Below are positions 1,318 to 46,825 of a stretch of 64,000 nucleotides of DNA, piece by piece. Position 1 is the first letter of the stretch. Every line of letters starts with the position of its first letter. Source of the stretch: Escherichia coli (GTDB taxonomy: Bacteria > Pseudomonadota > Gammaproteobacteria > Enterobacterales > Enterobacteriaceae); assembly GCF_044324875.1 (NCBI RefSeq), contig NZ_CP172185.1; one strand, given 5' to 3'. Under the pieces are notes generated by a model. It was given only the letters and a program-made list of their open reading frames with translations. It ran no database searches and was not told the DNA's origin. A program made the translations under genes and the position numbers.

Positions 1318-1327
1318 TAGTTCGTCC

Positions 1328-1846
1328 TTAATCGTCGCCTTTCAGTTTTTTGCGCTCGACATAAAGCTCCGCAGCTTCACGGACAAATGCAGCACAAATT
1401 TTGGCCTGATAACGCCGTTCAAGATCGTCAGCAATGGCAATAAGTTCTTGCTTAGTCGAACGATAAGGGCGTAACGCATTGTAGATTTCGAGGATGCGAT
1501 CATCCGGTACTGAGGTAAGCTCAGCGGCGCGTTCAAAATTCATCGCCAGGCGATCGCGACCAGCATCTCTGGCAATCGCGGCCTGAATACGCAATGTTTC
1601 AGGGGTTATACGCATATCCTGGGCGGTGACGTTATCGCTGAGTACATTTTCCAGAGTGAAATCGTCGAGCGTTTTATTGGTCGCCGTTTTAACCCATTCC
1701 GGATGTTTATTTGCCAGCGGATAATCCGTCACTTTGGCGCTCTGTATTGATGCGTTGGGGACCGCAGAAACAGAAGCTGCATCCTGTAAACTGTTCATGC
1801 GGTTCAACACGTCCCTGACCATCGACTCAATTGCATCGGTATTCAT
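1328..1846 (-). CDS. pduE: Propanediol dehydratase small subunit
   Basis: 172 aa ORF starting MNTDAIESMVRDVL..., which I recognise as PduE; operon position after pduD. Confidence 0.85.
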   Translation of the reverse strand: MNTDAIESMVRDVLNRMNSLQDAASVSAVPNASIQSAKVTDYPLANKHPEWVKTATNKTLDDFTLENVLSDNVTAQDMRITPETLRIQAAIARDAGRDRLAMNFERAAELTSVPDDRILEIYNALRPYRSTKQELIAIADDLERRYQAKICAAFVREAAELYVERKKLKGDD

Positions 1847-1860
1847 GAAGATTTCCTTTG

Positions 1861-2529
1861 TTAAAACGTCACGCGCAGTTCTTGCGGTTTTTTGCCAGTG
1901 ACCACGTACTTCGTCTCTTTGATATGCAAAATGGCAGATTTAGCCTGGTATTTCGGCCGCGCCATTTGATCGTTGAGGGTCGGCACCGGTTGTGGAGACT
2001 CACGCTTTGCATAACGCGCGGCGTTTTTGCCAATCTGACGATAAGTTTCCAGCGTCAACAAAGGCGCTTGAGGGAATAGTTCCAGGTTAGACAAGGGAGG
2101 AAGACCCTGCTGGTGGATAACCGTTGTGCCTTTCGACTGAATACCGATAGCAATACCTGAACCACTAAGACGATCGCCTTCGACTGCTACGAATGCGACA
2201 TCGGACGATTTAAAGCAGCGAATCACACGGGCTTTAATGCCTTCTTCTTCGATACCAGCAATCACTTCGCGCAAGATGTTTTTATGCGGAATACCGATGA
2301 TATTGACGGTTTGCGCCAGGCCGAACGCCGGGCCTACAGCAATAATGACTTCATCTTGCTGAGTGCCTTGTTGGGCTTCGCCAATTTCGGTCAGAAAAGT
2401 TCCGGTATCTGGCGCGGAAGAGACAGTTGCACAGGCAGGTGCGCGAAATGAAACGGGCTTGTCGCTGGTTTGCATTTCTGCCAGCACGTCTTCGATAATC
2501 TGACGCAGTAATTTTTCGTTAATTTCCAT
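1861..2529 (-). CDS. pduD: Propanediol dehydratase medium subunit
   Basis: 222 aa ORF starting [16 protein letters not shown]..., PduD-like; between pduC and pduE. Confidence 0.85.
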
Positions 2530-2538
2530 TTCTCACCC

Positions 2539-4203
2539 TTAGTCAATTTCGTTGGGATCAAGTGCACCGGGAATATTTTTGATCTCTTCCCAGCGTTCCC
2601 CTTGCAGGCGGTAACCTGTAGCCGGTCCGGCGTAATCATTGATGTCATTGACCGCTGAGAGCACTTGTCCGTCATCGACGATGATGGCTGAGGTATGGAG
2701 ATAATCGCCGGTCAGTTTTGCTTTTTGCATGTTGAGCATGTCCTGGGCGACATCGGTAAAACCGCCTTGCGCCAGGGCTTTCACCACTTCCAGGCTGTTA
2801 CGGTTTTTATTGATAATCTCCTGGGCGAACTTGATGTCTTCCACAATATTGCGCTCAGGCATATCTTTCGAACCGTGGGCATAGGTTGCCGCTTCGACTT
2901 CTTCATCGGTAATAGGCGGTAGTCCCATACCGGCAAAGACAGCCTGTAAAGCGCGAGCGGCTTTATTGCGGATAGCGATAACATCTTCTTCGCGTACTGG
3001 TCGCAGCCCGCCATCAACCTTCAGGTCACGCTGAATGACGTTGTAATCATCGAAGTCTTCAGCATCTTCGTTTGAACCAGCAAACATGTTGTCGTAGTTC
3101 GGCACAGCGGAAAAACCGGAAGAGATAAAGTCGGTACCTGGCAGAAACTGCATCAGGAAACGTGCGGTACGGCGCATATCCGAGTGGGTAAAGGTCTGGT
3201 CATTACTGGAAGCGCATTCCAGATCCAGCGATGAGCAAATTAAGTTTTCCGCTAATACTGCGCGGATGCCTGATGGCACAGCCGATGGGACACCGATGCA
3301 GCTTACCGAACCATTCTGCAGACCCTGAACGCCTGCGGCTTTAGTGATGTAAATGCAACGAGCCTCGAGATAAAGCATTGATTTGCCTTCCGCGTAACCC
3401 ATCTGTACTTCTGAGCCGGAGCCGGAAGTAAAGCGCATTTTTAAGCCGCGAGAAGCATAAGATGACGCGAGAAACCCTTTTGACCACGGGGTATCATCGC
3501 CATCGGTGAAAACAGGTTCTGTACCATAGACAGAAATTGTTTCGGCGTAACAGGTGTGGCCTAACATACCGAGTTTCAGTTCGGTGGCTTCTTCCAGTGA
3601 ACACTGGGTCAAGACGCCCGGACGTCCCACCTGTGAGCCGACCAGCAGGGCGATGGCGTTGAACGGTGCATAGCGAGCAACGGCAACGGTGGTTTCCTGT
3701 TCATCAAACCCGCGCCATGCGCCTTCAGCTGCGTCGGCGGCAATTTGTACCGGGTTATCTTTAACGTTGGTGACGTGAGCCTGTTGTGATGGTGTTCGAC
3801 GGGCGCGCATTTTCTGCATCGCCATCATCATCTCTACCACGTTCATCTGCGAAACCACTTCGACGATTTTTGCAGGCGTCATTGCTGTGGTAAGGGGAAC
3901 GATATCGCTACGTTTGACATTTGGATCGCACAACATATTGGCAAGTTTTACCGAATCCATCGCGATGACTTCTTCGGCGCGAGCGAGATTGATGCCGTAG
4001 CGGGCGATAAAGTGGTCGATCAGGTCAAACTGGCTGGCGGGTTTTCCATCCAGTTCGGTAACGACGCCGTTAACAATTTTGATTGACGGTTTAGGATCGT
4101 TCGGGCTTTCCATCGCAATGAAGCCTTCTTCAATCCACTCTTTAACGAAACCGTCCTGGTTGACCGGGCGTTTTGCCAGTGCTTCAAATCTTTTCGATCT
4201 CAT
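2539..4203 (-). CDS. pduC: B12-dependent propanediol/glycerol dehydratase large subunit
   Basis: 554 aa ORF, the size and sequence of a diol dehydratase large subunit. Confidence 0.9.
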   Translation of the reverse strand: MRSKRFEALAKRPVNQDGFVKEWIEEGFIAMESPNDPKPSIKIVNGVVTELDGKPASQFDLIDHFIARYGINLARAEEVIAMDSVKLANMLCDPNVKRSDIVPLTTAMTPAKIVEVVSQMNVVEMMMAMQKMRARRTPSQQAHVTNVKDNPVQIAADAAEGAWRGFDEQETTVAVARYAPFNAIALLVGSQVGRPGVLTQCSLEEATELKLGMLGHTCYAETISVYGTEPVFTDGDDTPWSKGFLASSYASRGLKMRFTSGSGSEVQMGYAEGKSMLYLEARCIYITKAAGVQGLQNGSVSCIGVPSAVPSGIRAVLAENLICSSLDLECASSNDQTFTHSDMRRTARFLMQFLPGTDFISSGFSAVPNYDNMFAGSNEDAEDFDDYNVIQRDLKVDGGLRPVREEDVIAIRNKAARALQAVFAGMGLPPITDEEVEAATYAHGSKDMPERNIVEDIKFAQEIINKNRNSLEVVKALAQGGFTDVAQDMLNMQKAKLTGDYLHTSAIIVDDGQVLSAVNDINDYAGPATGYRLQGERWEEIKNIPGALDPNEID

Positions 4204-4221
4204 AAATCTGCCTCAGAAAAT

Positions 4222-5034
4222 TCAGATGTAGGAAGGGCGATCGTTTTTCGGTGTATCGCCGAGAGTCGAAAGCACGGTTTTACCGATTTCGCGTGCGGAG
4301 ATGACCGCCTGGCGGACTGCGCCGGAGTCACCCGAGATAATCAGAATGACTTCATTGCTGTAGCTGGTGCCTTGCGCGGGGGAGCTGTATGCCACAACAT
4401 CCACATTGGCGGACTTCAGCGCGGTGTCTGCCATCAGAACACCCACCGCAGCCGGAGCGCCGACAATAACGCCGCAAGCCCGTCCCAGTGGAGCGCCAAA
4501 CGCTTTTTCCAGTGCATAGCTGGCGCGGGCGGTATATTGCAGTTCAAGATGTCCGGCTTCGTTGGCATAGACATCGCCAAAGGTTCGATCGAGTTCTTTC
4601 AGGGCAACTTCAATACCGCGTTTCACGTCGGAAACATCGTTGCCACCTAAGAGGATCAATGAGCCGTGTCCGGCACCGCCTTTAGTATCGCGAGGAAGTT
4701 CAATGCTAATAACTTCAGTATTGGTTGCTTTTACCGCTTCATCAGCGGCCATAATGTGTGGACCTGCGCCAATACGCGCACCCAGAATGCCAATGGAACG
4801 ATAGCGTTTTTCAAGTTTCATTGCGTCCAACAGGGCGCTATCAACGTTCGCAATGACCAGACCTACAGTGTCGCCAATAGCGGTGCCAACAAATTCTGTT
4901 AACGTGCAGCTTTTTTCTGCCATAGCCGTCTCTCGTATTTGATGAGTGGTTTTCGGGAGAACCTCATGCTCTGGCGTCGCTACGCGAGCGATGACCTGCG
5001 CCATGATCTGTTCGACCAGTTCATTGCTGCTCAT
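4222..5034 (-). CDS. pduB: Microcompartment shell protein PduB
   Basis: 270 aa ORF between pduA and pduC; tandem BMC-domain shell protein by sequence and position. Confidence 0.85.
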
Positions 5035-5315
5035 GGGTTAATTCCCTTTGGTAAGATTTTTTCGACATCGGTATGTGGGCGGGGAATAACGTGCACGGCT
5101 TTTACTTCGCCGACGTTACGCGCAGCTGCGGCACCTGCGTCTGTTGCCGCTTTTACCGCCCCGACATCACCACGAACGATGACGGTCACCAGCCCGGAAC
5201 CTATTTTTTCGTAGCCGACCAGCAAAACATTTGCCGACTTCACCATGGCGTCTGCGGCCTCTATGGCGGCAGTTAAGCCTTTGGTTTCTACCATTCCTAA
5301 CGCTTCTTGTTGCAT
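5031..5315 (-). CDS. pduA: Microcompartment shell protein PduA
   Basis: 94 aa [33 protein letters not shown]..., near-identical to the PduA I remember; first gene of the pdu operon. Confidence 0.9.
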
Positions 5316-5826
5316 AAAGACCTCGCCTGGATTTTTTTGACGATATGACTATAAAAAAAAGCGAGGAAAAAGAATGGCTGACTTAATCGGCTAATGAGAA
5401 AAATTAATAGAGAACAAATATTATAAAATTGCTTTTATGAACTATATGTTGTTAATTTATTAGTTGTTTTGTGGATATTTCAATGTGAATTAATTGCGTT
5501 GGCTAGTGAGTTTAATCGCGAGTAATATTTTGTGGGGGGGTGTTCGAGGAAGGAACTGTGATATTTGTTTCAATTTTATTATGTCATGATGGCAATTTTT
5601 TATTATAAAAGTTTGGCGGTAATTATTACTTTCAACACTGATTAACGCTGTGTTGCATGATTCGGTAATGACAATAATTTGTTATGTTAGCACGATTTTT
5701 ACACGAGTCTGTCATGCATGTTAGCAATATTTTCTGCAGAGCAATTTTTTATAGTTGCGCTCGATATATACAACAATCAGCGCATAGTTGGCTGATAAAG
5801 AAAAACTCCGTAAAGAAGGTGTCACT
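5316..5826. promoter_or_regulatory. AT-rich divergent control region between pduA and pduF
   Basis: About 500 bp AT-rich intergenic DNA between divergently oriented pduA and pduF; this is where the pdu and pduF-pocR promoters lie in Salmonella. No individual site was identified. Confidence 0.4.
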
Positions 5827-6636
5827 ATGAATGATTCACTCAAGGCGCAATGCGTTGCCGAGTTTTTGGGCACCGGACTGTTCCTCTTTTTTGGCATTGG
5901 TTGTTTGTGCGCCCTGAAACTTGCCGGGGCAAGTCTGGGACTGTGGGAAATTTGTATCATTTGGGGGTTAGGGATTTCGCTTGCTGTTTACCTTACGGCA
6001 GGTATTTCCGGCGCTCATCTCAACCCGGCAGTTACCATTGCTCTGTGGCTGTTTGCCTCTTTCCCAGCCCGTAAAGTGCTGCCATTTTGTGTGGTGCAAT
6101 TAGCGGGTGCCTTTGGTGGTGCGGTTCTGGCATATTTTCTCTACAGCAGTTTGTTTACCGATTTTGAATCTGCTCACAATATGGTGCGTGGTAGTGCAGA
6201 AAGTTTACAACTCGCCAGTATCTTCAGTACTTATCCGGCAGCGGCGATTAATGTATGGCAAGCTGCGTTGGTCGAAGTGGTCATAACGTCCATGTTAATG
6301 GGGTTGATTATGGCGTTGACCGATGACGGTAATGGCGTACCCAAAGGACCGCTTGCGCCTTTACTTATTGGTATTCTGGTTGCTGTTATTGGTGCTTCTA
6401 CCGGACCATTAACCGGTTTTGCCATGAATCCAGCGCGTGATTTTGGACCTAAAATTTTCACCTGGCTTGCGGGTTGGGGGGAAATTGCGATGACTGGTGG
6501 ACGCAATATTCCTTATTTCATTGTACCCATTATTGCACCGATCATTGGCGCATGTGTTGGTGCGGCGATTTATCGCTATCTCATTGCAAAGAATTTACCT
6601 GTCAATAGTGTTACACCTAAAGAAATCAGCGAATAA
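5827..6636 (+). CDS. pduF: Propanediol diffusion facilitator (MIP/aquaporin family)
   Basis: ORF track frame 5788..6636; likely start at internal MNDSLKAQC... preceded by an AAGGTG ribosome-binding site; multiple transmembrane segments and MIP-type NPA motifs (NPAVT, NPARD). Confidence 0.85.
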   Translation: MNDSLKAQCVAEFLGTGLFLFFGIGCLCALKLAGASLGLWEICIIWGLGISLAVYLTAGISGAHLNPAVTIALWLFASFPARKVLPFCVVQLAGAFGGAVLAYFLYSSLFTDFESAHNMVRGSAESLQLASIFSTYPAAAINVWQAALVEVVITSMLMGLIMALTDDGNGVPKGPLAPLLIGILVAVIGASTGPLTGFAMNPARDFGPKIFTWLAGWGEIAMTGGRNIPYFIVPIIAPIIGACVGAAIYRYLIAKNLPVNSVTPKEISE

Positions 6637-6838
6637 CGAAATAATCTGGCAGCTATAAACGTTTATTTTTTTACTGTTTGTGATCTGCTTTCCGAACTTA
6701 TTAAAAAGTCTCCCGCTTCACGGAGGCTTTTGTTATTGTCCTTTGTGCTTCTCGTCAGTAAATCATCAGGGATGATGTGAAGATTAAATGTAAAACAATT
6801 GTTTTGCTATAACAATAAATTAACTGGGAGGTTTTATC

Positions 6839-7753
6839 ATGATTTCTGCGGCGACACTTAATTCAGAACTCATTAATAAAATCGCGCAGGATTTTGCGCA
6901 GGCGACCAGCCTTGCGGTTGTCGTGGTCAATATTCACGGCGATGAAATTTCCGAGCTGTTTAACTTCACTCCATTTTGTCAGATGATGCGGCAACACTCT
7001 CAGCTTAGCACTCGATGTCGCATGAGCGATCGTTGTGGGGGCCTGGAAGCCTCTAAATCCGATCAGCCTTGTATTTATCGCTGTCATGCCGGATTAACCG
7101 ATTTCTCTATTCCACTGGTAATCGCCGGACATTTAGTTGGTTTTGTATTGTGCGGGCAAGTTCGTCTGCGTAATGATGATGTCGATTTGGTCGATATTCT
7201 GAATGTCGATGATTGCTGGCAGGCAGATCCCGAATTACTTAATGAATTTCGCAAAGTCCCTGAGATGGATTACTCAAGAGTTATGGCCTCTGCTGATTTG
7301 TTGAAGTTGATTGTGGAAAATTGCCTCAAAAAACAACTCAATTTTGTTGTTATTAAAGAGAACAAATTTCAGTCAGATTCGGTGCGCCAGACTCGTGCGC
7401 CTAATCCCCACGACAATAAAATGAAAAAAGCTTTACGCTATATTGATGCGCATTTATCAGACGATTTGCGTCTGGAAGATGTCGCCTCGCACGTTTATCT
7501 AAGCCCTTATTATTTCAGCAAGTTATTTAAGAAATACCATGGGATTGGGTTTAATGCGTGGGTAAACCAACAACGGATGGCCAGCGCTCGTGAGTTACTG
7601 TGCCATAGTGACTGGAGCATCGCCAGCATTGCGCGTAATTTAGGTTTTTCGCAAACCAGTTATTTTTGCAAAGTTTTCCGTCAGACTTATCAGGTTACGC
7701 CGCAGGTGTATCGGCAGCAAGTGAATGAAAATGCGGCGATGGAAACGGTATAG
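6839..7753 (+). CDS. pocR: AraC-family regulator of pdu/cob
   Basis: 304 aa ORF with a C-terminal AraC-type HTH domain (…YLSPYYFSKLFKKYHGIGFNAW…); position between pduF and the cob leader. Confidence 0.85.
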   Translation: MISAATLNSELINKIAQDFAQATSLAVVVVNIHGDEISELFNFTPFCQMMRQHSQLSTRCRMSDRCGGLEASKSDQPCIYRCHAGLTDFSIPLVIAGHLVGFVLCGQVRLRNDDVDLVDILNVDDCWQADPELLNEFRKVPEMDYSRVMASADLLKLIVENCLKKQLNFVVIKENKFQSDSVRQTRAPNPHDNKMKKALRYIDAHLSDDLRLEDVASHVYLSPYYFSKLFKKYHGIGFNAWVNQQRMASARELLCHSDWSIASIARNLGFSQTSYFCKVFRQTYQVTPQVYRQQVNENAAMETV

Positions 7754-7859
7754 AGTAAATGCCAAAAAAAAGGAAGGTTTAAATAAACGCTGGAATGAAT
7801 AATTAACGTTATTTACGTGTTATGGGAAAAGTGAAATCAGCTCATAACATACGCTGACA

Positions 7860-8060
7860 GGTGTGGCACATTTGTGCCAGGGAAGAGGGTGAAAATCCCT
7901 CGCAGCCCCCGCTGCTGTAATGCTGACAAACCCGAAAATGCCACTGATCGCGAGATTGGGAAGGTCGGGTGAGGATGACGCTAAGCCAGAAGACCAGTCT
8001 GTCAGTCAATACCAACAACTTCGGTGGGAAGTGGGTTGCCCGGAAGCGTCCGGTAGAGTA
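7860..8060 (+). ncRNA. Cobalamin (B12) riboswitch-like leader
   Basis: Contains GTGCCAGGGAAGAGGGTGAAAATCCC, GCAGCCCCCGCTGCTGTAA, GCCACTG and a B12-box-like AAGCCAGAAGACCAGTC, all resembling conserved cobalamin-riboswitch segments as in the btuB and cob leaders. Confidence 0.7.
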
Positions 8061-8235
8061 CTGGCGCGTCTTTATACCCCTACCACCCTGAAAGGATCAG
8101 GGTATGGCGGCATCATTTAGTTCTTTCATCGCAGTGCCAACAGGCACCAGAGCTGCACTTAAGGTGTGGCAATCTTGTTTCATGGCTCATCAACCAGACC
8201 GCCATTACAGGAAACTAAGTGGAGGGCGAGGGACA

Positions 8236-8672
8236 TGAAAACGATAAGACCCGAATCGATAGCTCTTTTTTGCCTCTTATCTGGAGATGCGGACCTGGCG
8301 AAACAATTGGCTGAAATATTGCCAATAACTTGTTTTGTTGGTGAGGACTGGCAGCAAGATTTCCAGCCTCTTGACGGTGGGCCTGTGCAATCGTTATCAG
8401 ATGTGTATGGCGATTATTCAGTGCTGCTATTGATAGCAGCTGAAAGCGAGATATCCGTACCAGAATGGCTCGCTCATTCTGAAGGAACGACGGTAATTGT
8501 GATTGCAGAACACAATGCCCGTTTGCTGACTGGTCCGGCTGGTGGGGCTGTAGCATTGATCCATTATCTGAATGAAATCTGTCATTCCAGAGAAACCGCT
8601 GTCAATGACGCATTTTGTCGTACGTTAACACGAGGAAGTCTGGCTATTCCGCAATGCCATCTTCTTTCGTAA
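8236..8672 (+). CDS. Hypothetical protein downstream of the B12 riboswitch (possible remnant of a deleted cbi region)
   Basis: ORF track frame 8166..8672; internal ATG (MKTIRPES...) preceded by GGAGGG; no family recognised. Confidence 0.3.
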
Positions 8673-8805
8673 TGGATTGAGAATGCTGGATTTTTAATTA
8701 TATTACGCGCAGTATTAATCGCGTAAATGTTTTGCGGTCAGCAACGGTGGGGGATCCATTGTTCTGTTCAATGAATACCATCATACAAATGAATCAGGAG
8801 TCGGT

Positions 8806-9351
8806 ATGATGATTTTGGTGACGGGGGGCGCACGGAGCGGGAAGAGTCGCCACGCAGAGGCGCTTATTGGGGACTCTTCACAGGTTCTGTATATCGCCAC
8901 CTCGCAAATCCTTGATGATGAGATGGCTGCACGGATAGAACATCATCGGCAAGGCCGCCCGGCGCACTGGCGCACGGTGGAGCGCTGGCAACATCTTGAT
9001 GAATTAATTCATGCAGACATTAACCCGCATGAAGCTGTGTTGCTGGAATGCGTTACCACAATGGTGACTAATCTGTTGTTTGATTATGGCGGCGATAAAG
9101 ACCCTGATGAATGGGATTATCAGGCGATGGAACAGGCAATTAATGCTGAGATTCAGTTGTTGATTGCTGCCTGCCAACGTTGCCCCGCGAAGATTGTATT
9201 AGTGACTAACGAAGTGGGAATGGGGATTGTGCCGGAGAGTCGTCTGGCACGACATTTTCGTGATATTGCCGGGCGGGTAAATCAGCAGCTGGCCGCTGCG
9301 GCAAATGAAGTGTGGCTGGTGGTTTCGGGTATTGGAGTAAAAATCAAATGA
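8806..9351 (+). CDS. cobU: Adenosylcobinamide kinase / adenosylcobinamide-phosphate guanylyltransferase
   Basis: 181 aa [25 protein letters not shown]... with P-loop; matches E. coli CobU. Confidence 0.95.
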
Positions 9352-10091
9352 GTAAATTATTTTGGGCGATGCTCTCTTTTATTACGCGTCTGCCTGTGCC
9401 GCGTCGCTGGTCCCAGGGACTGGATTTCGAGCATTATTCTCGCGGTATTATTACTTTTCCTTTAATTGGTTTATTGCTTGGCGCGATTAGCGGGCTGGTC
9501 TTCATGGCGTTGCAGGCATGGTTTGGCGTACCACTGGCGGCACTGTTTAGCGTACTTGTGCTGGCGCTTATGACCGGGGGATTCCACCTGGACGGCCTCG
9601 CCGATACTTGTGATGGCGTATTTTCTGCACGTAGCCGCGATCGCATGTTGGAAATCATGCGTGATAGCCGTTTAGGTACCCACGGCGGTCTGGCATTGAT
9701 TTTTGTTGTACTGGCAAAGATTTTGGTGTTAAGCGAGTTGGCTTTGCGTGGCGAACCGATCCTTGCATCGCTGGCGGCAGCATGCGCGGTCAGCCGCGGG
9801 ACTGCCGCATTATTGATGTATCGTCATCGTTATGCCCGGGAAGAAGGGCTTGGCAATGTGTTCATTGGCAAAATTGATGGGCGACAAACCTGCGTCACAC
9901 TCGGTTTAGCCGCTATTTTTGCTGCTGTATTATTGCCAGGTATGCATGGTGTGGCTGCTATGGTGGTGACGATGGTGGCGATTTTCATCCTCGGTCAGCT
10001 TCTCAAACGTACGCTGGGCGGGCAAACCGGCGATACGCTGGGAGCAGCCATAGAGCTTGGTGAACTGGTCTTCCTGCTGGCACTGCTATAA
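9348..10091 (+). CDS. cobS: Cobalamin synthase
   Basis: Start [17 protein letters not shown]... overlapping the cobU stop (ATGA); polytopic membrane protein matching CobS. Confidence 0.95.
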
Positions 10092-10102
10092 AGAGACGTG
10101 AC

Positions 10103-11182
10103 ATGCAAACACTTGCCAATTTACTGAATACGATCCCTGCCATCGATCCTGCCGCTATGTCGCGTGCACAACGGCATATTGACGGGTTACTCAAACCTGT
10201 TGGTAGCCTGGGAAGGCTGGAGGCGCTTGGCGTACAACTGGCGGGAATGCCGGGGTTGAATGGCATACCGCATGTGGGCAAAAAAGCGGTACTGGTTATG
10301 TGTGCCGATCACGGCGTCTGGGAGGAAGGGGTCGCTATTTCCCCAAAAGAAGTCACAGCCATTCAGGCTGAAAATATGACCCGCGGAACAACCGGCGTGT
10401 GTGTGCTGGCAGCACAAGCGGGCGCTAACGTCCACGTAATTGATGTTGGTATTGATACTGCTGAGCCTATCCCCGGGCTTATCAACATGCGTGTCGCACG
10501 AGGTAGCGGCAATATTGCTTCAGCTCCGGCAATGAGTCGCCGTCAGGCTGAAACGTTGCTTTTGGACGTCATATGTTATACGCGGGATCTGGCAAAAAAC
10601 GGTGTCACGCTGTTTGGTGTAGGTGAATTGGGGATGGCAAACACGACACCGGCAGCGGCGATAGTGAGCACAATCACTGGCCGGGCTCCTGAAGAAGTGG
10701 TTGGGATTGGCGCAAACCTGCCGACAGATAAACTGGCTAATAAAATTGATGTTGTGCGACGGGCGATTACGTTGAATCAACCAAATCCGCAGGATGGCGT
10801 TGATGTCCTGGCAAAAGTGGGTGGATTTGATTTGGTCGGAATGGCTGCCGTGATGTTAGGCGCTGCGTCCTGCGGTTTACCGGTGTTGCTGGATGGATTT
10901 CTTTCTTATGCTGCTGCGCTCGCAGCCTGCCAGATGTCTCCTGCAATCAAACCGTATCTCATTCCTTCTCACCTGTCGGCAGAAAAAGGGGCGCGTATAG
11001 CGCTGTCACATTTGGGGCTGGAGCCTTATCTCAATATGGAGATGCGTTTAGGTGAGGGGAGTGGCGCAGCTCTGGCGATGCCCATCATCGAAGCTGCTTG
11101 TTCGATATACAACAACATGGGCGAACTTGCTGCCAGTAATATTGTTCTACCGGGGAATACGACTTCTGATTTGAACAGTTAA
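10103..11182 (+). CDS. cobT: Nicotinate-nucleotide--dimethylbenzimidazole phosphoribosyltransferase
   Basis: 359 aa [35 protein letters not shown]..., matching CobT. Confidence 0.95.
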
Positions 11183-12234: not shown

Positions 12235-12310
12235 TGGCTCCTCTGACTGGACTCGAACCAGTGACATACGGATTAACAGTCCGCCGTTCTACCGACTGAA
12301 CTACAGAGGA
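12235..12310 (-). tRNA. asnV: tRNA-Asn (anticodon GUU)
   Basis: Reverse complement reads TCCTCTGTAGTTCAGTCGGTAGAACGGCGGACTGTTAATCCG...GGTTCGAGTCCAGTCAGAGGAGCCA, the E. coli tRNA-Asn sequence; gene name assigned by position. Confidence 0.95.
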
Positions 12311-14642: not shown

Positions 14643-14718
14643 TGGCTCCTCTGACTGGACTCGAACCAGTGACATACGGATTAACAGTCCGCCGTTCTAC
14701 CGACTGAACTACAGAGGA
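14643..14718 (-). tRNA. asnU: tRNA-Asn (anticodon GUU)
   Basis: Same 76-nt tRNA-Asn sequence on the minus strand. Confidence 0.95.
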
Positions 14719-16466: not shown

Positions 16467-16542
16467 TCCTCTGTAGTTCAGTCGGTAGAACGGCGGACTG
16501 TTAATCCGTATGTCACTGGTTCGAGTCCAGTCAGAGGAGCCA
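16467..16542 (+). tRNA. asnW: tRNA-Asn (anticodon GUU)
   Basis: Plus-strand TCCTCTGTAGTTCAGTCGGTAGAACGGCGGACTGTTAATCCGTATGTCACTGGTTCGAGTCCAGTCAGAGGAGCCA. Confidence 0.95.
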
Positions 16543-19610: not shown

Positions 19611-20927
19611 TCAAGCGCGTAGATTATCTTTCATCAACAAAGCGGTCATTGCGGAAATCAGGCATCCAGCCAGCAAATAAATGGCGACGCTATGCCAGTT
19701 CCCGGCAAAGTAAGTGATGAGTGCAGCGGCAATAAAAGGTGTAAATCCACCGCCAACCACACTGGCAACCTGATAACCGACTCCTGCACCACTATAGCGA
19801 TAACTGGCACCAAACATTTCGGTAAACATCGGTTGTTGCACACACACCACCATGTCATGCGCAATGTTTGCCAGCATTATGGAGAAGAAAACTATCCAGA
19901 AAATAGATTGTGTTTCAAGCGCCATAAAGAAAGGAAATGCGCTCAACGTTCCGATTAACGCGCCTGTGATATAAACCCTGCGGCGACCAAAACGATCGGC
20001 AAGCCAGGCAAAACAGGGAATGGTCAGGCAGCTTAATCCACCTACCAGCAAACCAATATTAAGGAAAAGTTCGCGCGGTAACCCCATATTCTGGGTTGAA
20101 TAATTAAGTGCGAAGGCGGTAACGATGTACATCGTCAGCAACTCGCACAGTCGTAGCGCAATAATCTTCAGGAAAGCACCGGGATGTCGTAATAGTGCTT
20201 CGATAACCGGAATGCGTTTTTTCGCGGCCGCTTGATTATGTTGCTGTTGTTCGAATTCCGCGGACTCCTCCATGCCATTACGCACCCACAATGCTCCCAG
20301 TACCAGTACGATGCTAAACAGGAAAGGAATGCGCCAGCCCCAGCTTAAAAACTGTTCGTCAGTCGTCATCATACTGATCAATGAAACCAGTCCAGTTGAA
20401 AGCAGTAAACCTACACCGTAGCCAACTTGTACACCGCTACTGTAAAAGGCTTTTTTATTTTTCGGTGCACTTTCAACGGAAAGTAACGCTGCGCCTCCCC
20501 ATTCGCCGCCGACGGCAAATCCCTGTATGGCACGCAGCGTCACCAGTAAAATGGGGGCCCACCACCCAATGGTCGAGAAGGAAGGAAGAATACCAATCAA
20601 GGCTGTCGCGATGCCCATCATCCAGACGGTCAGCATTAACATGCGCTTACGTCCCAGCCGGTCGCCAAAGTGACCGAAAATGACACCGCCGAGCGGACGG
20701 AAAAGGAATCCGACGCCAAAGGTGGCAAATGCGGCGAGCGTTCCCATAGCCGGGCTTACTTGCGGGAAAAACTCGCGATTAAACACCAGTGCGGCGGTAA
20801 TGCCATAGAGTAAAAAATCATACCAGTCGACGACGGCACCAGCGAAACTGCCTAACGCAGCTCGTCGGGCGCGACTTAACGAAAGCGTCCCTTCATCGGG
20901 ACGAGTGGAGATGAGCGTGGAGTCCAT
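19611..20927 (-). CDS. shiA: Shikimate transporter (MFS)
   Basis: 438 aa ORF with 12 predicted transmembrane segments; size and sequence match ShiA. Confidence 0.9.
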   Translation of the reverse strand: MDSTLISTRPDEGTLSLSRARRAALGSFAGAVVDWYDFLLYGITAALVFNREFFPQVSPAMGTLAAFATFGVGFLFRPLGGVIFGHFGDRLGRKRMLMLTVWMMGIATALIGILPSFSTIGWWAPILLVTLRAIQGFAVGGEWGGAALLSVESAPKNKKAFYSSGVQVGYGVGLLLSTGLVSLISMMTTDEQFLSWGWRIPFLFSIVLVLGALWVRNGMEESAEFEQQQHNQAAAKKRIPVIEALLRHPGAFLKIIALRLCELLTMYIVTAFALNYSTQNMGLPRELFLNIGLLVGGLSCLTIPCFAWLADRFGRRRVYITGALIGTLSAFPFFMALETQSIFWIVFFSIMLANIAHDMVVCVQQPMFTEMFGASYRYSGAGVGYQVASVVGGGFTPFIAAALITYFAGNWHSVAIYLLAGCLISAMTALLMKDNLRA

Positions 20928-22873: not shown

Positions 22874-31489
<8,616 letters not shown>

Positions 31490-31801
31490 GCTTACCTTCC
31501 CTGAACGAGCTAACATAAATGCGCCCTTTCTAGCACAGCGAAAAAAAGTAAATCCTGATAGCAATATGATTGAAAATTAATAACTTTTCGTTAAGCAGTT
31601 TTGGGTGTGAGTTGCAAGGGGGAGACTACTGAATTACTCAAGTTTTATAATCGAGGGGAAAATGGTGATGGCGTCCATAGCAAAACGCCCTCAACCATTA
31701 AGGTCGAGGGCGCTTAAGATGTCAAAAACCCGCTATCCGTTAAAAAGCAATGCTCAACTAAGGTCAGTGACATTGGGCTAAAAAAGCGAATTTTTAGAAT
31801 T

Positions 31802-31877
31802 TGGCTCCTCTGACTGGACTCGAACCAGTGACATACGGATTAACAGTCCGCCGTTCTACCGACTGAACTACAGAGGA
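31802..31877 (-). tRNA. asnT: tRNA-Asn (anticodon GUU)
   Basis: Fourth copy of the identical 76-nt tRNA-Asn sequence, minus strand. Confidence 0.95.
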
Positions 31878-32867: not shown

Positions 32868-32957
32868 CGGAGAGATGCCGGAGCGGCTGAACGGACCGGT
32901 CTCGAAAACCGGAGTGGGGGCAACTCCACCGGGGGTTCAAATCCCCCTCTCTCCGCC
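32868..32957 (+). tRNA. serU: tRNA-Ser (anticodon CGA)
   Basis: GGAGAGATGCCGGAGCGGCTGAACGGACCGGTCTCGAAAACCGGAGTGGGGGCAACTCCACCGGGGGTTCAAATCCCCCTCTCTCCGCCA: long-variable-arm class II tRNA with anticodon CGA. Confidence 0.9.
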
Positions 32958-33002
32958 AAAATTCAATCACTTATACATCATTAAGTCAGTGACAAAAATC
33001 AC

Positions 33003-37692: not shown

Positions 37693-37861
37693 AATGGCAG
37701 CCTCCACGTTGAGTATTGATAACTCACCACCGAGGCTTTCCACGACCATAATGGTGGTGAGACGTACAGGGGTGGAAATACCGGTCAACGTAGAACCCGG
37801 CCAGCCTTGCGGCTGCCCTGCACGCCCCACCATAATCTGAATGTGGCTGTGCTTCACGCAT

Positions 37862-37886
37862 AAAAAAACCGCCTGAGCGCGGTTGT
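37862..37886 (-). terminator. Intrinsic terminator on the minus strand upstream of rha
   Basis: Minus strand reads AACCGCGCTCAGGCGGTT followed by a U-run (plus strand TAAAAAAACCGCCTGAGCGCGGTT). Confidence 0.45.
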
Positions 37887-38501
37887 GCGCTACGTTTGAC
37901 TTCGGGTTTCCACGCCCGGCACCCGGTTTATGAGGTGCAGGTGCACTATAATTCCACCCGTACTGGTTTTCAATAGCTACATTCAACATTTTCTCTTACC
38001 TTTCATCACCGAAGTGAACTTTGTTGATGCGGTGCCAGGTGCCTCCAGGTGACGTTAACCAGTTAACAATTAACGCCGGATACAGAGAATCCACCCATAA
38101 CTCTGTTTTTGGTTTTAACTGTTCCACGTGCGATCAGCCGCATTCACCACATCACAAAATTCACTTTAAAAAGGGCGGCAGAGCAGTCACGGAGTAAAAC
38201 TGATACCGCAAAACGTCACCAGAAAATTGATAACAGATGGCGTTGCAGCGGGGTTGTCACTCAGGCGCATGGTCAACCTGACAACCCGGTGTCCTCAAGG
38301 GGAAGGGAACCCCGCCATGCTTACCGCCGCGCCATTTCGCGGAGTGCCACAACCGGAAGCGGACGGTCGACGAAAATTTAACGACAGGCTATATATGAAC
38401 CAGCTACCTCGCCGTGCGCTTTCGTGTTGTGTGCCTGCTTTTAACCACGTCAGGCGAGGTGGTATCCTCTGAGGGGTCTGTTACCCGAGAGGAAATTGGT
38501 T

Positions 38502-41316: not shown

Positions 41317-42387
41317 ATGGCTAATGCCTGGCTCAGATTATGGCATGACATGCCAAATGACCCCAAGTGGCGAACCATTGCCCGGGTGTCAGGTCAGCCA
41401 ATTGCAACAGTGATGGCTGTGTATATCCACCTCCTGGTGAGCGCGTCACGAAATGTCACGCGAGGTCACATTGATGTCACGACCGAGGATTTGGCAAGTG
41501 CGCTCGATGTGACAGAAGAGATGATTGATTCAATTTTGCAGACGATGCAGGGGCGGGTACTTGATGGTGATTTAATCACTGGATGGGAAAAACGCCAGGT
41601 GCTGAAAGAGGACAACGGCAATATTTCGCAAACCGCAAAATCTCCTGCAGAGCGCAAGAGGGCGCAGCGAGAGAGGGAAAGAAAGCGGGAACAAAATGGC
41701 GATTGTCACGGCGCGTCACGAAATGTCACGCACATGTCACGACGAGTCACGACAGATAAAGATACAGATAAAGATACAGATCAAGAAGATCAAAACACTA
41801 TGGTCCATGGCGTGAAAAACGCCACGAACCAGGCTGGGGATGTTCAGACCGTCAATCCTGATCAGCCCGCAGGCACGACACCGGAAGCCGATTCAGCGTA
41901 TGCGCTGAAAGCCGATTCGGGCGCTGTGCAGCAGGCGATGACCGCAGGGTCGGAGCAATCACACCAACTGCAGCAGCCTGAAGCCGATTCCGCGATTCAG
42001 CGGGAAGCCGATCGGGTAGTCCCGGAAAACACCGGGCAGCCTGTGGGACGAGTGGATTATCCGGATGTGTTCGAACAGGTCTGGCGGGAATACCCGTTGC
42101 GTGCCGGGGCAAACCCGAAGAAATCCGCTTTCAGTGCCTGGAAGGCCAGATTACGCGAGGGGGTGCCACCGCAGGTCATGCTGGATGGTGTGAGGCGTTA
42201 CGCGAGGTACCTGGCGGCGACCGGGAAAGCGGGAACGGAATTTGTTCAGCGGGCGACAACGTTTTTTGGACCTGACCGGAATTTTGAAAACCCCTGGTTG
42301 CTCCCGACTGGCGGGACGAACAACCAGCGTTGTGTGAATCATATTTCCGAACCGGATACCGAAATTCCACCAGGTTTCAGGGGGTGA
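41317..42387 (+). CDS. Replication initiation protein (YdaU-like) with internal origin iterons
   Basis: 356 aa; N-terminal MANAWLRLWHDMPNDPKWRTIARVSGQP...; the gene body contains two clusters of GTCACG repeats. Confidence 0.6.
   Translation: MANAWLRLWHDMPNDPKWRTIARVSGQPIATVMAVYIHLLVSASRNVTRGHIDVTTEDLASALDVTEEMIDSILQTMQGRVLDGDLITGWEKRQVLKEDNGNISQTAKSPAERKRAQRERERKREQNGDCHGASRNVTHMSRRVTTDKDTDKDTDQEDQNTMVHGVKNATNQAGDVQTVNPDQPAGTTPEADSAYALKADSGAVQQAMTAGSEQSHQLQQPEADSAIQREADRVVPENTGQPVGRVDYPDVFEQVWREYPLRAGANPKKSAFSAWKARLREGVPPQVMLDGVRRYARYLAATGKAGTEFVQRATTFFGPDRNFENPWLLPTGGTNNQRCVNHISEPDTEIPPGFRG
41444..41752. repeat. Candidate replication-origin iterons (GTCACG repeats at about 10-bp spacing, two clusters)
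   Basis: Cluster 1 at about 41444..41481 (four GTCAC copies); cluster 2 at about 41705..41752 (five GTCACG copies at 10-11 bp spacing); followed by A-rich GATAAAGATACAGATAAAGATACAGATCAAGAAGATCAAAAC. Confidence 0.5.
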
Positions 42388-43163: not shown

Positions 43164-43934
43164 ATGGAAACCGTTTTAGACGCACTGAAAGCAATGGGAA
43201 AAGCCACGTCGGTAGAATTGGCTACGCGACTTGATATCAGTCGTGAAGAAGTTCTGAACGAGCTGTGGGAACTCAAAAGAAATGGCCTCGTTGATAAAAC
43301 TGGTCACATCTGGTTTCTGGCTGGCGAAGGTGAATCCCGGGTAACCGAAGAGCGACCAGTAAAATCTGAAGCACAGGATATGCTGACCGGGGAGGTTGAA
43401 CAAAAAGTTACCGCAGACATGATGATTGAGTTTATCAGTCAGGAGGGGGCTAAAACGTGTGAGGAACTGGCGGGTAAGTTCGGTGTCAGCACTCGCAAGG
43501 TTGCTTCCACACTGGCGGTAGTAACCGCAACGGGGCGGCTGGCACGCGTTAATCGGAACGGTAAATTTAGTTACTGCATGCCGGGCGATAATTTACCGGC
43601 AGAGCCGAAAGCTGCACCGGTAACGAAAACGGCTGGTAAGGCCTTTCCTCAGCCAGCAGGTGTTGCGTTACCAGTACAGGAAGCTGCAACACAGGAAGAA
43701 ATTACAACAGATACTGTGGCGGACATTGTGCAGTCGCTGCCATCGTTTACTGAAACGCGAGCGGATGACCTGGTTTTACCATCGCTGCATATGGCAAACC
43801 GCGAATTGCGTCGGGCGAAAAATCATGTTCAGAAGTGGGAGCGAGTCTGCGCCGCGCTGCGGGAGCTGAACAAGCACCGGGATATTGTTCGACAGATTAC
43901 TGATTCTTCCCGCCGTGTTGTATCGGAAAAGTGA
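43164..43934 (+). CDS. Hypothetical phage protein (predicted winged-helix domains)
   Basis: 256 aa ORF in operon continuity; no family recognised with confidence. Confidence 0.5.
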   Translation: METVLDALKAMGKATSVELATRLDISREEVLNELWELKRNGLVDKTGHIWFLAGEGESRVTEERPVKSEAQDMLTGEVEQKVTADMMIEFISQEGAKTCEELAGKFGVSTRKVASTLAVVTATGRLARVNRNGKFSYCMPGDNLPAEPKAAPVTKTAGKAFPQPAGVALPVQEAATQEEITTDTVADIVQSLPSFTETRADDLVLPSLHMANRELRRAKNHVQKWERVCAALRELNKHRDIVRQITDSSRRVVSEK

Positions 43935-44344
43935 TTGCCGGAGGCGCTTATGGCAAAAGTATTTACACAAGAAGAGCGGGAAAAATTAAAGGGCAGGTTG
44001 TCGAACTCGTGCGACAGAGCGGGCGCGAGACGTTACGACAACTGGAAGCGAAAACAGGTGCGACAAGATATCTGCTGAGCGTTCTTGCCAGAGAGCTGGT
44101 TGCCAGTGGTGATGTATACAATTCAGGCTACGGATTATTCCCGTCTGAGCAGGCGCGTAAAGACTGGCAAAACGCCCGCAAAAAACTATCAAGGGAAAAG
44201 GTGAAAAAACCGGTTGTGGTTGATCCTGACCTTATCTGGTCATTACCAGACGGAGAAATACGCCGCTACGACAGGCGCCTGAATATAATCTGTCGCGAGT
44301 GCCGGAAGAGCGAAGCTATGCAGCGTGTACTGGCATTTTATTAA
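43931..44344 (+). CDS. Hypothetical phage protein
   Basis: 137 aa ORF with GTG start overlapping the upstream stop. Confidence 0.45.
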   Translation: MIAGGAYGKSIYTRRAGKIKGQVVELVRQSGRETLRQLEAKTGATRYLLSVLARELVASGDVYNSGYGLFPSEQARKDWQNARKKLSREKVKKPVVVDPDLIWSLPDGEIRRYDRRLNIICRECRKSEAMQRVLAFY

Positions 44345-44549
44345 GGAAATGTTAGGTATTTTAGACGTTACTAGATTAAAGAGCATTAGTTCAGATGTGA
44401 ATTGACATTTTCATGGCGCAGGGTAGAGCTAGTGTGGTTGTCCGCTTTGCGTCAAAACCAGATATTACCAGATTTAGACATATATTCCCGATAGCCCTGC
44501 TCTGATGCTACACTCTGTGCTATTTTCATGACCCCCAATAAAAATATTT

Positions 44550-45215
44550 ATGACTATTGCTGATTTCAAACGGCCTAAATTGGAGCTCCCGAACGGGGCA
44601 AACAAACTACTACTGCACTCTTGCTGTGCTCCATGTTCCGGTGAAGTGATGGAGGCGCTTCAGGCCTCGGGAATCGACTACACCATCTTTTTCTACAACC
44701 CGAACATTCATCCTCAGAAAGAGTATTTAATTCGTAAGGATGAAAATATTCGCTTTGCTGAACAACACGGCGTGCCGTTTATCGATGCTGATTACGACAC
44801 CGACAACTGGTTTGAACGTGCCAAAGGAATGGAATGGGAGCCTGAGAGGGGGATCCGTTGTACCATGTGTTTTGACATGCGTTTTGAGCGGACAGCGTTG
44901 TACGCTGCTGAAAATGGTTTCAGTGTGATCAGCAGTTCACTGGGCATTTCACGCTGGAAAAATATGCAGCAGGTTAACGAGTGTGGGCGGCGAGCTGTTG
45001 CGCATTATCCGGGTATGGTGTACTGGGATTATAACTGGCGCAAGCAGGGCGGCTCGTCCCGTATGATTGAAATCAGCAAGCGCGAAAAATTCTATCAGCA
45101 GGAATATTGTGGCTGTGTGTATTCTCTGCGCGATACCAATCTACACCGCAAATCTCAGGGACGCCCTCTTATAAAAATTGGCCAACTCCACTACGGAAAA
45201 GAAGAGAAGGAGTGA
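44550..45215 (+). CDS. DUF208 / QueH-like protein (putative B12-independent epoxyqueuosine reductase)
   Basis: 221 aa with N-terminal [14 protein letters not shown] motif and further conserved Cys (…[10 protein letters not shown]…, …EYCGCVYS…), resembling what I remember of the DUF208/QueH family; own promoter-like region upstream. Confidence 0.55.
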
Positions 45216-45451
45216 TTTTATGGATCACCTTTCTGATTGATTTCATATTGGCGAGGTGACGGGAGTTAAGTAGAATTGCTGCGGGTGCTTGAGGCTATCT
45301 GCCTCGGGCATGAACACCAACGGCAGATAGAGAAAAGCCCCAGTTAACATTATGCGTCCTGCAAGACGCTTAACATTAATCTGAGGCAGAATCTATGTCT
45401 AGCAAATGTAGGTTAGCCTCTTACGTGCCGAAAGGCAAGGAGAAGCAGGCT

Positions 45452-45607
45452 ATGAAGCAGCAAAAGGCGATGTTAGTCGCCCTGATCGTCATCTGTATTA
45501 CCGTCATTGTGACGGCACTGGTAACGAGGAAAGACCTCTGCGAGGTACGAATCCGAACCGGCCAGACGGAGGTCGCTGTCTTCACAGCTTACGAACCTGA
45601 GGAGTAA
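45452..45607 (+). CDS. hok: Hok/Gef-family type I toxin
   Basis: MKQQKAMLVALIVICITVIVTALVTRKDLCEVRIRTGQTEVAVFTAYEPEE, 51 aa, near-identical to chromosomal Hok/Gef peptides; the ORF track frame extends in-frame upstream to 45395. Confidence 0.8.
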   Translation: MKQQKAMLVALIVICITVIVTALVTRKDLCEVRIRTGQTEVAVFTAYEPEE

Positions 45608-45711
45608 GAGACCAGGCGAGGGAGAAATCCCTCGCCACCTCTGATGTGTCAGGCATTCTCAACGCACCCGCACTTAACCCGCTTCGGCTGTTCCTTAGTT
45701 TGTCCTGATTT

Positions 45712-46065
45712 TTATTTATTACTAATACATGATTTAATTCCTTGAATCCTCTTGTTTTTTCCATTGGTAGGATCTAACACACCTCGAAGAGAATAAAAAT
45801 CAATAGTGGTAGAGCCGTCTGCTGACTTATAAATGTCGGCATTATCTGCAACTGCTAATACACTGTAATATTTACCAATTTTTTGAGAAGTGATAGTATA
45901 CAAGAGAGGTACACGTTGCCACTCACTGAGAATGCATTCTTGTATTTCTTGTGGTGGAGAATTTGTTTTAAATGAAATGATAATATCCTGCTCTTCTCTA
46001 TAATTATAAGGGTTTACGCATCCAGAAATTGCGAAAGAAAACAGAAGAATAATGATCCTGTTCAT
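45712..46065 (-). CDS. Small lipoprotein of unknown function
   Basis: ORF track frame 45712..46095; start at internal MNRIIILLFSFAISGC (signal peptide plus lipobox-like ISGC); gene is AT-rich by eye. Confidence 0.55.
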   Translation of the reverse strand: MNRIIILLFSFAISGCVNPYNYREEQDIIISFKTNSPPQEIQECILSEWQRVPLLYTITSQKIGKYYSVLAVADNADIYKSADGSTTIDFYSLRGVLDPTNGKNKRIQGIKSCISNK

Positions 46066-46127
46066 TTTTTTGCCTCTTTTGAAAATATTACTCAATTATT
46101 TTAGTTGCGGTGTGTTATAAGCATTAA

Positions 46128-46427
46128 CTATAAAATATTAGATTCATAATTTTGTCCGCCGTGGTAAACGCCAGCGATAAAGACTTTATTGCCATCAACG
46201 GCAAAAGCAATAATCGTTCTGTGTCGGAAATGAGTTACCCGCATCCCCTGGCGAATATCATCGCGTTTATTGCCCCGATGCGGGAATGTAGAAAACCCAT
46301 CAAGATAATCAAGAAGCGCATTGGCATAATTGTCAGCAATGACGCTTCTTGCTTTCTCCGTTATATATCTGTGCAGGTTTATTATCTGCTGTTCGGCCTC
46401 GGGGGTAATGATGACTTCATATGTCAT
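46128..46427 (-). CDS. parE: ParE/RelE-family type II toxin
   Basis: 99 aa MTYEVIITPEAEQQIINLHRYI...; immediately downstream of a ParD-like gene. Confidence 0.7.
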   Translation of the reverse strand: MTYEVIITPEAEQQIINLHRYITEKARSVIADNYANALLDYLDGFSTFPHRGNKRDDIRQGMRVTHFRHRTIIAFAVDGNKVFIAGVYHGGQNYESNIL

Positions 46428-46432
46428 GCAGA

Positions 46433-46690
46433 TTACTTCCCGGATCGAATCGCGGCGCGAACCTGTGAAATGGAGCGTCCGTTGTTTGGATTTTCGCGGA
46501 TAGAATCAAGAGAGGGGGCGGCTGAATGCGTTAACCACGCTTCGATTGCTTTATCGCGCTCATTCAGTGCACGAAGCCCTTCACGAATGACCTCGCTTTC
46601 TGAAGCATAGGCACCGGAAGCCACACGGGCGCGCACCATGTCAGCCATCTCGTTAGTTAATGTAATGCTGAATTGTTGGGTTGTACGCAT
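46433..46690 (-). CDS. parD: ParD-like antitoxin
   Basis: Start at internal MRTTQQFSITLTNEMADMVRARVASGAYASESEVIREGLRAL... (ParD-like N-terminus); 5 nt upstream of parE. Confidence 0.65.
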   Translation of the reverse strand: MRTTQQFSITLTNEMADMVRARVASGAYASESEVIREGLRALNERDKAIEAWLTHSAAPSLDSIRENPNNGRSISQVRAAIRSGK

Positions 46691-46825
46691 GGTAAACCTC
46701 ACGGAGTAGGATAGAACACTATTCGATGATAGCACGCTGCCTGTTGACGACAACAGAAATCAGAGACAATATTGCCGCACGCCAGCCTGAACAACTGGCA
46801 CCTGCTGCGCCAGCAGAGAAAACAA

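Follow-up and report, generated by a model that had tools for sequence, protein, structure and literature searches.

A lambdoid prophage of Escherichia coli carries a predicted cobalamin-independent epoxyqueuosine reductase, QueH

The last step in the maturation of queuosine (Q) in tRNA, the conversion of epoxyqueuosine (oQ) to Q, is carried out in Escherichia coli by QueG, and oQ accumulates in cells lacking B12. That oQ reduction in E. coli and Salmonella requires a cobamide is established (Frey et al. 1988, as cited by PMC5175355 and PMC4646009), as is the standing of a second enzyme, QueH, as a non-orthologous replacement of QueG (Zallot et al. 2017, as cited by PMC5372724 and PMC6461909). 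Some streptococci are reported to have both QueG and QueH (PMC12632869). Viruses also carry genes from the queuosine pathway; among those covered by a 2019 survey of viral 7-deazaguanine genes, none was reported to have QueA, QueG or QueH (Hutinet et al. 2019, PMC6884629). Our literature search found no paper on a prophage-borne QueH in E. coli, and the wider point, that temperate phages carry a late, tRNA-specific Q gene, was absent from the literature we found. Here, we describe such a gene and compare it with these systems.

The window analysed here is a 64,000-nucleotide stretch of E. coli DNA. An uninterrupted open reading frame on its + strand (44550–45215, stop included) starts with ATG and encodes 221 amino acids. 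Several lines of evidence described below confirm it as a real gene, not a chance reading frame. A first reading of the letters alone had named an HSCCAPCS motif near the N-terminus and further conserved cysteines as marks of the DUF208/QueH family; the motif occupies residues 23–30, and the further cysteines are C104 and C107 (in RCTMCF) and C187 and C189 (in YCGCVYS). Scanning the protein against Pfam with hmmscan returned a single match, QueH/PF02677.20 (E = 1.1e-65), in which residues 20–194 align to positions 1–174 of the 175-position model. PF02677 is thus the only Pfam domain in the protein, and a corrinoid-binding domain is absent. A phmmer search of PDB sequences returned entries for Thermotoga maritima QueH only (E ~1e-21, residues 20–196), namely 7lc5 (E = 7.6e-22), 7lc7 and 9deu, together with two mutant structures, 9dco and 9d86. 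The region of similarity to this structurally solved enzyme spans 177 residues.

Database names for this protein differ in how much they say. RefSeq WP_000150294.1, named "epoxyqueuosine reductase QueH", has exactly the sequence of the window protein, as do the proteins from strains AR_0085 and ST131. None of the NCBIfam models matched it, so the RefSeq name must stem from another rule. In PHROGs, the protein falls into phrog_3217, which is labelled "unknown function" and whose profile begins at Met34 of the window protein.

We next compared the protein with the breadth of its family using two alignments, one of 57 full-length QueH representatives taken from 50%-identity clusters and one of 26 diverse sequences. 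All near-invariant columns of the 57-sequence alignment are kept in the window protein (C25, C26, C29, Y59, R62, E99, R103, C104, C107, R111, A119, K137, C187, G188 and C189), and the 26-sequence alignment gave the same invariant set, again with every member present. Further family-invariant residues are identical as well (N52, I53, E58, W87, Q184, Y186 and S192). The seven cysteines (C25, C26, C29, C104, C107, C187 and C189), arranged in CCAPC, CxxC and CxC motifs, fall in columns that are invariant or at least 88% conserved among the 57 and 26 representatives. We take this set to be the ligands of a [4Fe-4S] cluster and an extra iron, as in the T. maritima QueH structure. An AF2 model built on the alignment (mean pLDDT 93.6, pTM 0.90) had T. 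maritima QueH as its top five Foldseek matches (E = 1e-14; target TM 0.92 and rmsd 1.3 Å for 7lc5), with TtuA-type PP-loop proteins, which are sulfurtransferases, next (E = 5e-5). The profile search, the conserved residues and the fold therefore agree on the family that had been proposed from the letters. The assignment of the gene as QueH is solid, and we consider it highly probable that its product is, as predicted, an epoxyqueuosine reductase. The protein is a canonical member of a family whose chemistry, like the protein name itself, is already public, and in this respect our result is confirmatory rather than a discovery.

One position deserves separate comment. Cys29 of the window protein aligns opposite Asp13 of T. 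maritima QueH, the residue altered in the D13N structure 9dco. We rejected this substitution as the mark of an aberrant enzyme, because Cys occupies the position in 55 of 57 diverse QueH proteins and it is T. maritima, with its Asp, that departs from the norm. T. maritima QueH, the structural model enzyme, may itself be unusual at a mechanistically interesting position.

The surroundings of the gene bear out its description as prophage accessory cargo. A lambdoid prophage, listed at 32869–64000 and running past the window end, is integrated at tRNA-Ser(CGA) (32869–32958), directly after which it starts; its gene order recurs in other strains and in phage HannyBb, with queH in the same slot. 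Early genes of the prophage encode an integrase, exonuclease VIII, Rha and a DicA-like repressor, and the immunity region near Rha contains the C4 antisense RNA, IsrK and DicF sRNAs (37750–38224, − strand; 78.6, 67.1 and 67.3 bits). A replication initiator (41317–42387) is followed by a DnaC-like loader and a DUF1627 gene, and a Ren-like/DUF977 gene (43931–44344) lies directly 5′ of the spacer that precedes queH (44550–45215, + strand, PF02677). On the other side of queH stand a hok/sok type I toxin–antitoxin locus (45283–45607, + strand), recognized by an Rfam sok match of 114.9 bits at 45283–45457 and a Hok-like reading frame; a small lipoprotein-like reading frame (45712–46095, PHROG 914); and a ParE-like toxin with a ParD-family antitoxin (46128–46753, − strand), a pair absent from related prophages. 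A module of DUF968/HNH, RusA and a Q-like antiterminator follows downstream, and further 3′ the sizes and order of the reading frames resemble lysis, terminase, portal, protease, capsid and tape-measure genes. The queH slot is thus an accessory position between the replication module, ending in Ren-like/DUF977, and the DUF968–RusA–Q module, with hok/sok as its neighbor.

The chromosomal part of the window begins with a region (1–11182) that holds the pdu operon, encoding a B12-dependent diol dehydratase, together with pocR, a short cobalamin-biosynthesis remnant and cobUST; a cobalamin riboswitch lies at 7842–8016 (104.7 bits). After cobUST come ldtA, nac, cbl, yeeO, amn, shiA and a large Ig-like adhesin gene. 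The last of these is a 2896-aa reading frame (22874–31564, − strand) between shiA and the final tRNA-Asn gene; its counterpart in a related genome is annotated as an Ig-like domain-containing protein, and we regard a YeeJ-type adhesin as probable. Across the species, the opening 25 kb of the window is uncommon, with only 363 of 5426 E. coli genomes matching at least 80% of it. The sequence-only reading had considered it notable that queH sits beside a region devoted to B12 salvage. This was not borne out, since the cassette also occurs in prophages elsewhere and on plasmids. Rather, queH lies near cobUST and pdu because the prophage integrates at tRNA-Ser, ~21 kb from cobT, and the proximity is coincidental; a functional link between queH and cobUST/pdu was rejected given that the cassette is found at other prophage loci and on IncF plasmids. 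The same window also contains four tRNA-Asn(GUU) genes (12235–12310, 14643–14718, 16467–16542 and 31802–31877), which are substrates of the Q pathway. As tRNA-Asn genes stand at matching positions in AR_0085 and MEW, this is chromosomal layout and a coincidence with queH.

We then examined how widely the gene is distributed. Of 5426 complete E. coli genomes, 994 (~18%, roughly one in six) carry the queH coding sequence, nearly always on the chromosome, and it is annotated across carriers as "epoxyqueuosine reductase QueH". These carriers include O25b:H4-ST131, avian and ExPEC strains, and Crooks. The major allele, present in 706 genomes at ≥99% identity, is close to clonal; a second one belongs to E. 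coli B/REL606, E. coli C, ATCC 8739 and ATCC 11303. The premise that E. coli normally uses QueG held up: the enzyme is annotated in K-12 (yjeS/b4166), and a search with the K-12 gene found queG in 5425 of the 5426 complete genomes, so that QueH always comes in addition to a non-orthologous enzyme for that step.

Carriage is not tied to one prophage type. The same DUF977-to-hokD/nin slot is occupied in differing backbones, which are lambda-like at tRNA-Ser, Qin-like in E. coli B and Rac-like in WL164. In E. coli B, queH (6001–6666 of the B-LamR locus) persists within a decayed Qin-like prophage whose neighboring genes are pseudogenes. This prophage also contains, 3′ of Q (10167–10313 of the locus), a truncated "2-thiouracil desulfurase family" pseudogene, a second nucleobase-related cargo gene in queH prophages. 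The deposited 45-kb genome of an isolated phage, Escherichia phage HannyBb, carries queH at 19980–20666, annotated "hypothetical protein", and in IMG/VR at least 80 viral contigs encode the identical protein and 182 stretches encode relatives. A 79% match to "Acinetobacter phage MD-2021a" was rejected as a second phage carrier, the record being a mislabelled bacterial chromosomal contig; in this 328-kb sequence (CAKLQH020000001.1), soxR, cynX, tadA and yoaF flank its queH. Beyond phages, conjugative IncF plasmids of Klebsiella and Salmonella carry queH as a lone cassette in the vicinity of TonB-family and fec genes. There the cassette adjoins TonB-family fragments and the fecC/fecE iron-dicitrate transport genes, a setting that might point to a shortage of iron or another metal, and not of B12, as the selective pressure on plasmids.

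Stand-alone chromosomal QueH proteins of Erwinia, Gibbsiella, Providencia, Proteus, Photorhabdus and Ewingella, among other genera, share 80–86% amino acid identity with the window protein, whose 90%-identity cluster has 2308 members and includes proteins of Enterobacter species. In Enterobacter, queH is chromosomal and its neighborhood is syntenic between species (frmR-like ... queH – csbD – EAL regulator). The closest relatives of the window gene are these chromosomal Enterobacter genes and the IncF-plasmid copies. Amino acid identity is 93–94% between Enterobacter and the Klebsiella plasmid, 94% between the Klebsiella plasmid and the E. coli prophage, and 88–90% between Enterobacter and the E. 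coli prophage. This gradation of identities is consistent with, though not proof of, a path from an Enterobacter-like chromosome to plasmids and on to phages.

The explanation that best accommodates these observations, and that we regard as probable when taken as a whole, is that the gene encodes a canonical and active QueH, a cobalamin-independent tRNA epoxyqueuosine(34) reductase relying on a [4Fe-4S] cluster and iron. Under this explanation, the host's own pathway up to QueA would supply oQ-tRNA, and prophage QueH would convert oQ to Q at the wobble position of tRNA-Asn, -Asp, -His and -Tyr. The mobile unit would be a cassette consisting of the coding sequence and ~100 nt upstream with a promoter-like element, derived from the chromosomal queH of an Enterobacter-like lineage of Enterobacteriaceae and now carried by IncF plasmids and by lambdoid prophages in their accessory (nin-region) slot. 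QueH would duplicate the housekeeping, cobalamin-dependent QueG of E. coli, and a lysogen could still finish making Q if no corrinoid is available, in the way that MetE provides a backup for MetH. Such B12-independent queuosine synthesis in lysogens is a plausible prediction from the gene content, and it may bring a fitness benefit under B12 limitation.

The spacer between the Ren-like/DUF977 gene and queH is 205 bp long (44345–44549, + strand), and alignments of queH carriers place the start of homology, and with it the left edge of the cassette, about 90–110 nt 5′ of the ATG. Within this conserved stretch lies the element CTGATGCTACAC(T) (44502–44514, with the 12-mer at 44502–44513, + strand), 35 nt before the ATG. 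The 12-mer CTGATGCTACAC is invariant in five diverged mobile lineages, comprising E. coli prophages and Salmonella and Klebsiella IncF plasmids, and it is unchanged although synonymous sites in the coding sequence are saturated. A related sequence, ATGCTACCCT, of the type ATGCTAC(C/A)CT, occupies the same position 5′ of the chromosomal queH of Enterobacter quasiroggenkampii, and the element is absent 5′ of more distant chromosomal queH genes. We infer from this conservation that CTGATGCTACAC is a candidate promoter or operator belonging to queH itself, with an extended −10-like TGcTACACT. The candidate −10 has no accompanying −35 and reads TACACA in one lineage. The conserved element 5′ of queH contains TGCTACACT, and we note a resemblance of GCTACACT to KCTAYRCT, the sigma-S −10 consensus. 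Genes next to the cassette on its upstream side in the plasmids are divergent and none is co-oriented with queH, so a promoter would have to sit in the short conserved region. These features suggest that the cassette may bring its own promoter and could be expressed from a repressed prophage.

Other signals were sought in the same region. A consensus scan detected no sigma-70 promoter on the + strand 5′ of queH, and no Shine-Dalgarno sequence precedes its ATG. We also considered an upstream riboswitch (for example for preQ1) or another known RNA and rejected it: an Rfam scan of 44200–45800 returned only sok/hok, 3′ of queH, and nothing 5′, while the leader gave an RNAfold z of 0.25 and an RNAalifold energy of −0.7 kcal/mol with no covariation. 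That queH is a true lysogenic-conversion gene, with its own promoter (possibly of a stationary-phase/RpoS type) and providing B12-free Q maturation in ~18% of E. coli, is a possibility that we put forward only tentatively.

Because no terminator was found between the replication genes and queH, read-through from the early operon is possible and transcription after induction is also to be expected. This observation would fit an alternative in which QueH is active on behalf of the phage rather than the lysogen, being made only from the early rightward operon after induction and serving full Q-tRNA maturation in lytic growth or the decoding of NAU and NAC codons of phage genes. Consistent with this alternative, queH is co-oriented with the replication genes and Q, it lies in the delayed-early region, and 43900–46200 contains no terminator-like site on the + strand. 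However, IncF plasmids and defective Qin-like and Rac-like remnants retain the cassette and its upstream element as well, although they have no lytic programme, and selection there is still purifying. Codon usage speaks against it too, with 60% of NAY codons ending in U in prophage genes versus 65–68% in neighboring host genes; usage in phage and host genes is thus similar, and a special phage demand for Q-decoded codons finds no support. On balance, we think it improbable that QueH serves the phage instead of the lysogen.

We also compared diverged alleles of the gene. Compared with the E. coli B allele, the window gene shows a dN/dS of 0.055 at a dS of 0.30, and compared with the Klebsiella IncF-plasmid allele, 0.026 at a dS of about 1.5. 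Across diverged queH alleles, dN/dS thus lies at 0.03–0.06 for dS of 0.3–1.5 and no catalytic residue is lost, values that indicate strong purifying selection over the mobile history of the gene. Selection also speaks to the start codon. Codons 1–33 (44550–44648) carry 16 synonymous versus 3 non-synonymous changes relative to the Klebsiella plasmid allele, a constraint that favors a true start at the ATG of 44550 over one at Met34. Translation from Met34, as suggested by the PHROG 3217 profile, was accordingly rejected, since codons 1–33 are equally constrained and hold the CCAPC motif. Many phage gene models in the PHROG 3217 family are N-terminally truncated and drop this motif.

The same measurements weigh on the view that queH is neutral, hitch-hiking cargo, intact only through recent acquisition and contributing nothing in a QueG-positive host. 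Its constant redundancy with queG and the near clonality of the major allele (706 genomes at 99% identity or above) would fit such cargo. Yet neutrality is hard to reconcile with dN/dS of 0.03–0.06 at dS of 0.3–1.5 and complete retention of the catalytic residues, or with persistence of the gene in decayed prophages among pseudogenes, as in E. coli B, and we judge it very unlikely.

The remaining alternatives concern the substrate. The sequence-only reading had noted no other 7-deazaguanine genes nearby, and this proved correct: genes for DpdA/TGT or for preQ0 synthesis are absent from the prophage part of the window, and no DpdA/TGT, FolE or QueC/D/E homologues were found in annotated related prophages or HannyBb, which makes DNA modification unlikely. 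PADLOC gave no defence-system match for QueH, the Ren-like protein, the lipoprotein-like reading frame, the ParE/ParD-like pair or DUF968, and only weak HTH-type matches for the DUF1627 protein, and a role as a defence-system component was rejected on this basis. A QueH-fold enzyme acting on another substrate (7-deazaguanine in phage DNA, or a free nucleoside), or taking part in anti-phage or anti-defence functions, might be imagined from the diversion of the preQ0 pathway to DNA modification by phages (PMC6884629) and from the exclusion and toxin–antitoxin cargo around the gene (Ren-like, hok/sok and the ParE/ParD-like pair), but with these partner genes missing, PADLOC negative for QueH and its neighbors, and a protein 80–90% identical to stand-alone chromosomal Enterobacterales QueH with family-invariant residues unchanged, we give it hardly any credence.

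How much an active QueH would matter to a lysogen is a separate question, and a measurable physiological effect is considerably less certain than the enzymatic identity. Our literature search found neither activity or expression data for this allele nor a phenotype separating oQ-tRNA from Q-tRNA; given the latter, the benefit may be small. The presence of pdu and cobUST in this strain suggests normal access to corrinoids, which counts against the explanation we prefer.

If prophage QueH is active, the rule that Q maturation depends on cobalamin, for which E. coli serves as the reference organism, would fail in about one-sixth of E. coli strains, among them clinically dominant ExPEC lineages and the classical laboratory strains B/REL606, C and ATCC 8739. 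This bears on experiments on tRNA modification, B12 limitation and queG mutants in non-K-12 backgrounds: the behavior of Q and oQ without B12 in E. coli B, REL606, C, ATCC 8739 and ATCC 11303 may differ from that in K-12, and REL606, which carries a queH allele, is the ancestor of the long-term evolution experiment. Should queH prove to be a lysogenic-conversion gene, strain background would set whether B12 starvation alters the tRNA epitranscriptome, and the gene would be the first documented phage-borne late-step Q gene. An active QueH would add a step of tRNA maturation to the functions moved by temperate phages and IncF plasmids among Enterobacteriaceae. Phage databases need correcting in any case, as PHROG 3217 is labelled "unknown function" and the HannyBb copy "hypothetical protein"; RefSeq is ahead of them here. 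What emerges is a modestly interesting and cheaply testable question of physiology attached to an ordinary, already annotated gene.

Compared with known systems, the window protein is closest in structure to T. maritima QueH (7lc5, 7lc7 and 9deu), with which it shares the full-length domain, the fold, the CC/CxxC/CxC cysteine set and the invariant residues. It differs in having only ~30% identity, in carrying Cys29 where the T. maritima enzyme has Asp13, and in being extended by 19 aa at the N-terminus and by a basic stretch of ~25 aa at the C-terminus, two additions common to Enterobacterales homologues. Chromosomal Enterobacterales QueH proteins are of equal length and 80–90% identical, and the Enterobacter genes also have a related upstream element; whereas those genes stand alone in ordinary neighborhoods, the window gene belongs to the cargo of a lambdoid prophage, and QueG is the core-genome enzyme of its host species. 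QueG itself catalyzes the same reaction on the same tRNA substrates, and the two genes coexist in carriers, but QueG is non-orthologous and uses cobalamin and two [4Fe-4S] clusters, while the window QueH has no corrinoid-binding domain. The 7-deazaguanine genes of phages (DpdA with FolE, QueD, QueE and QueC, among others; PMC6884629) resemble it in being phage-borne and drawn from the queuosine pathway; unlike queH, they belong to early steps of that pathway and act on DNA, whereas the window gene represents a late, tRNA-specific step and has no DpdA beside it. Finally, the pairing of QueG and QueH recalls MetE and MetH in concept (PMC6461909), two enzymes for one reaction in one genome of which only one requires B12, with the difference that MetE belongs to the core genome and QueH varies between strains and resides on mobile elements.
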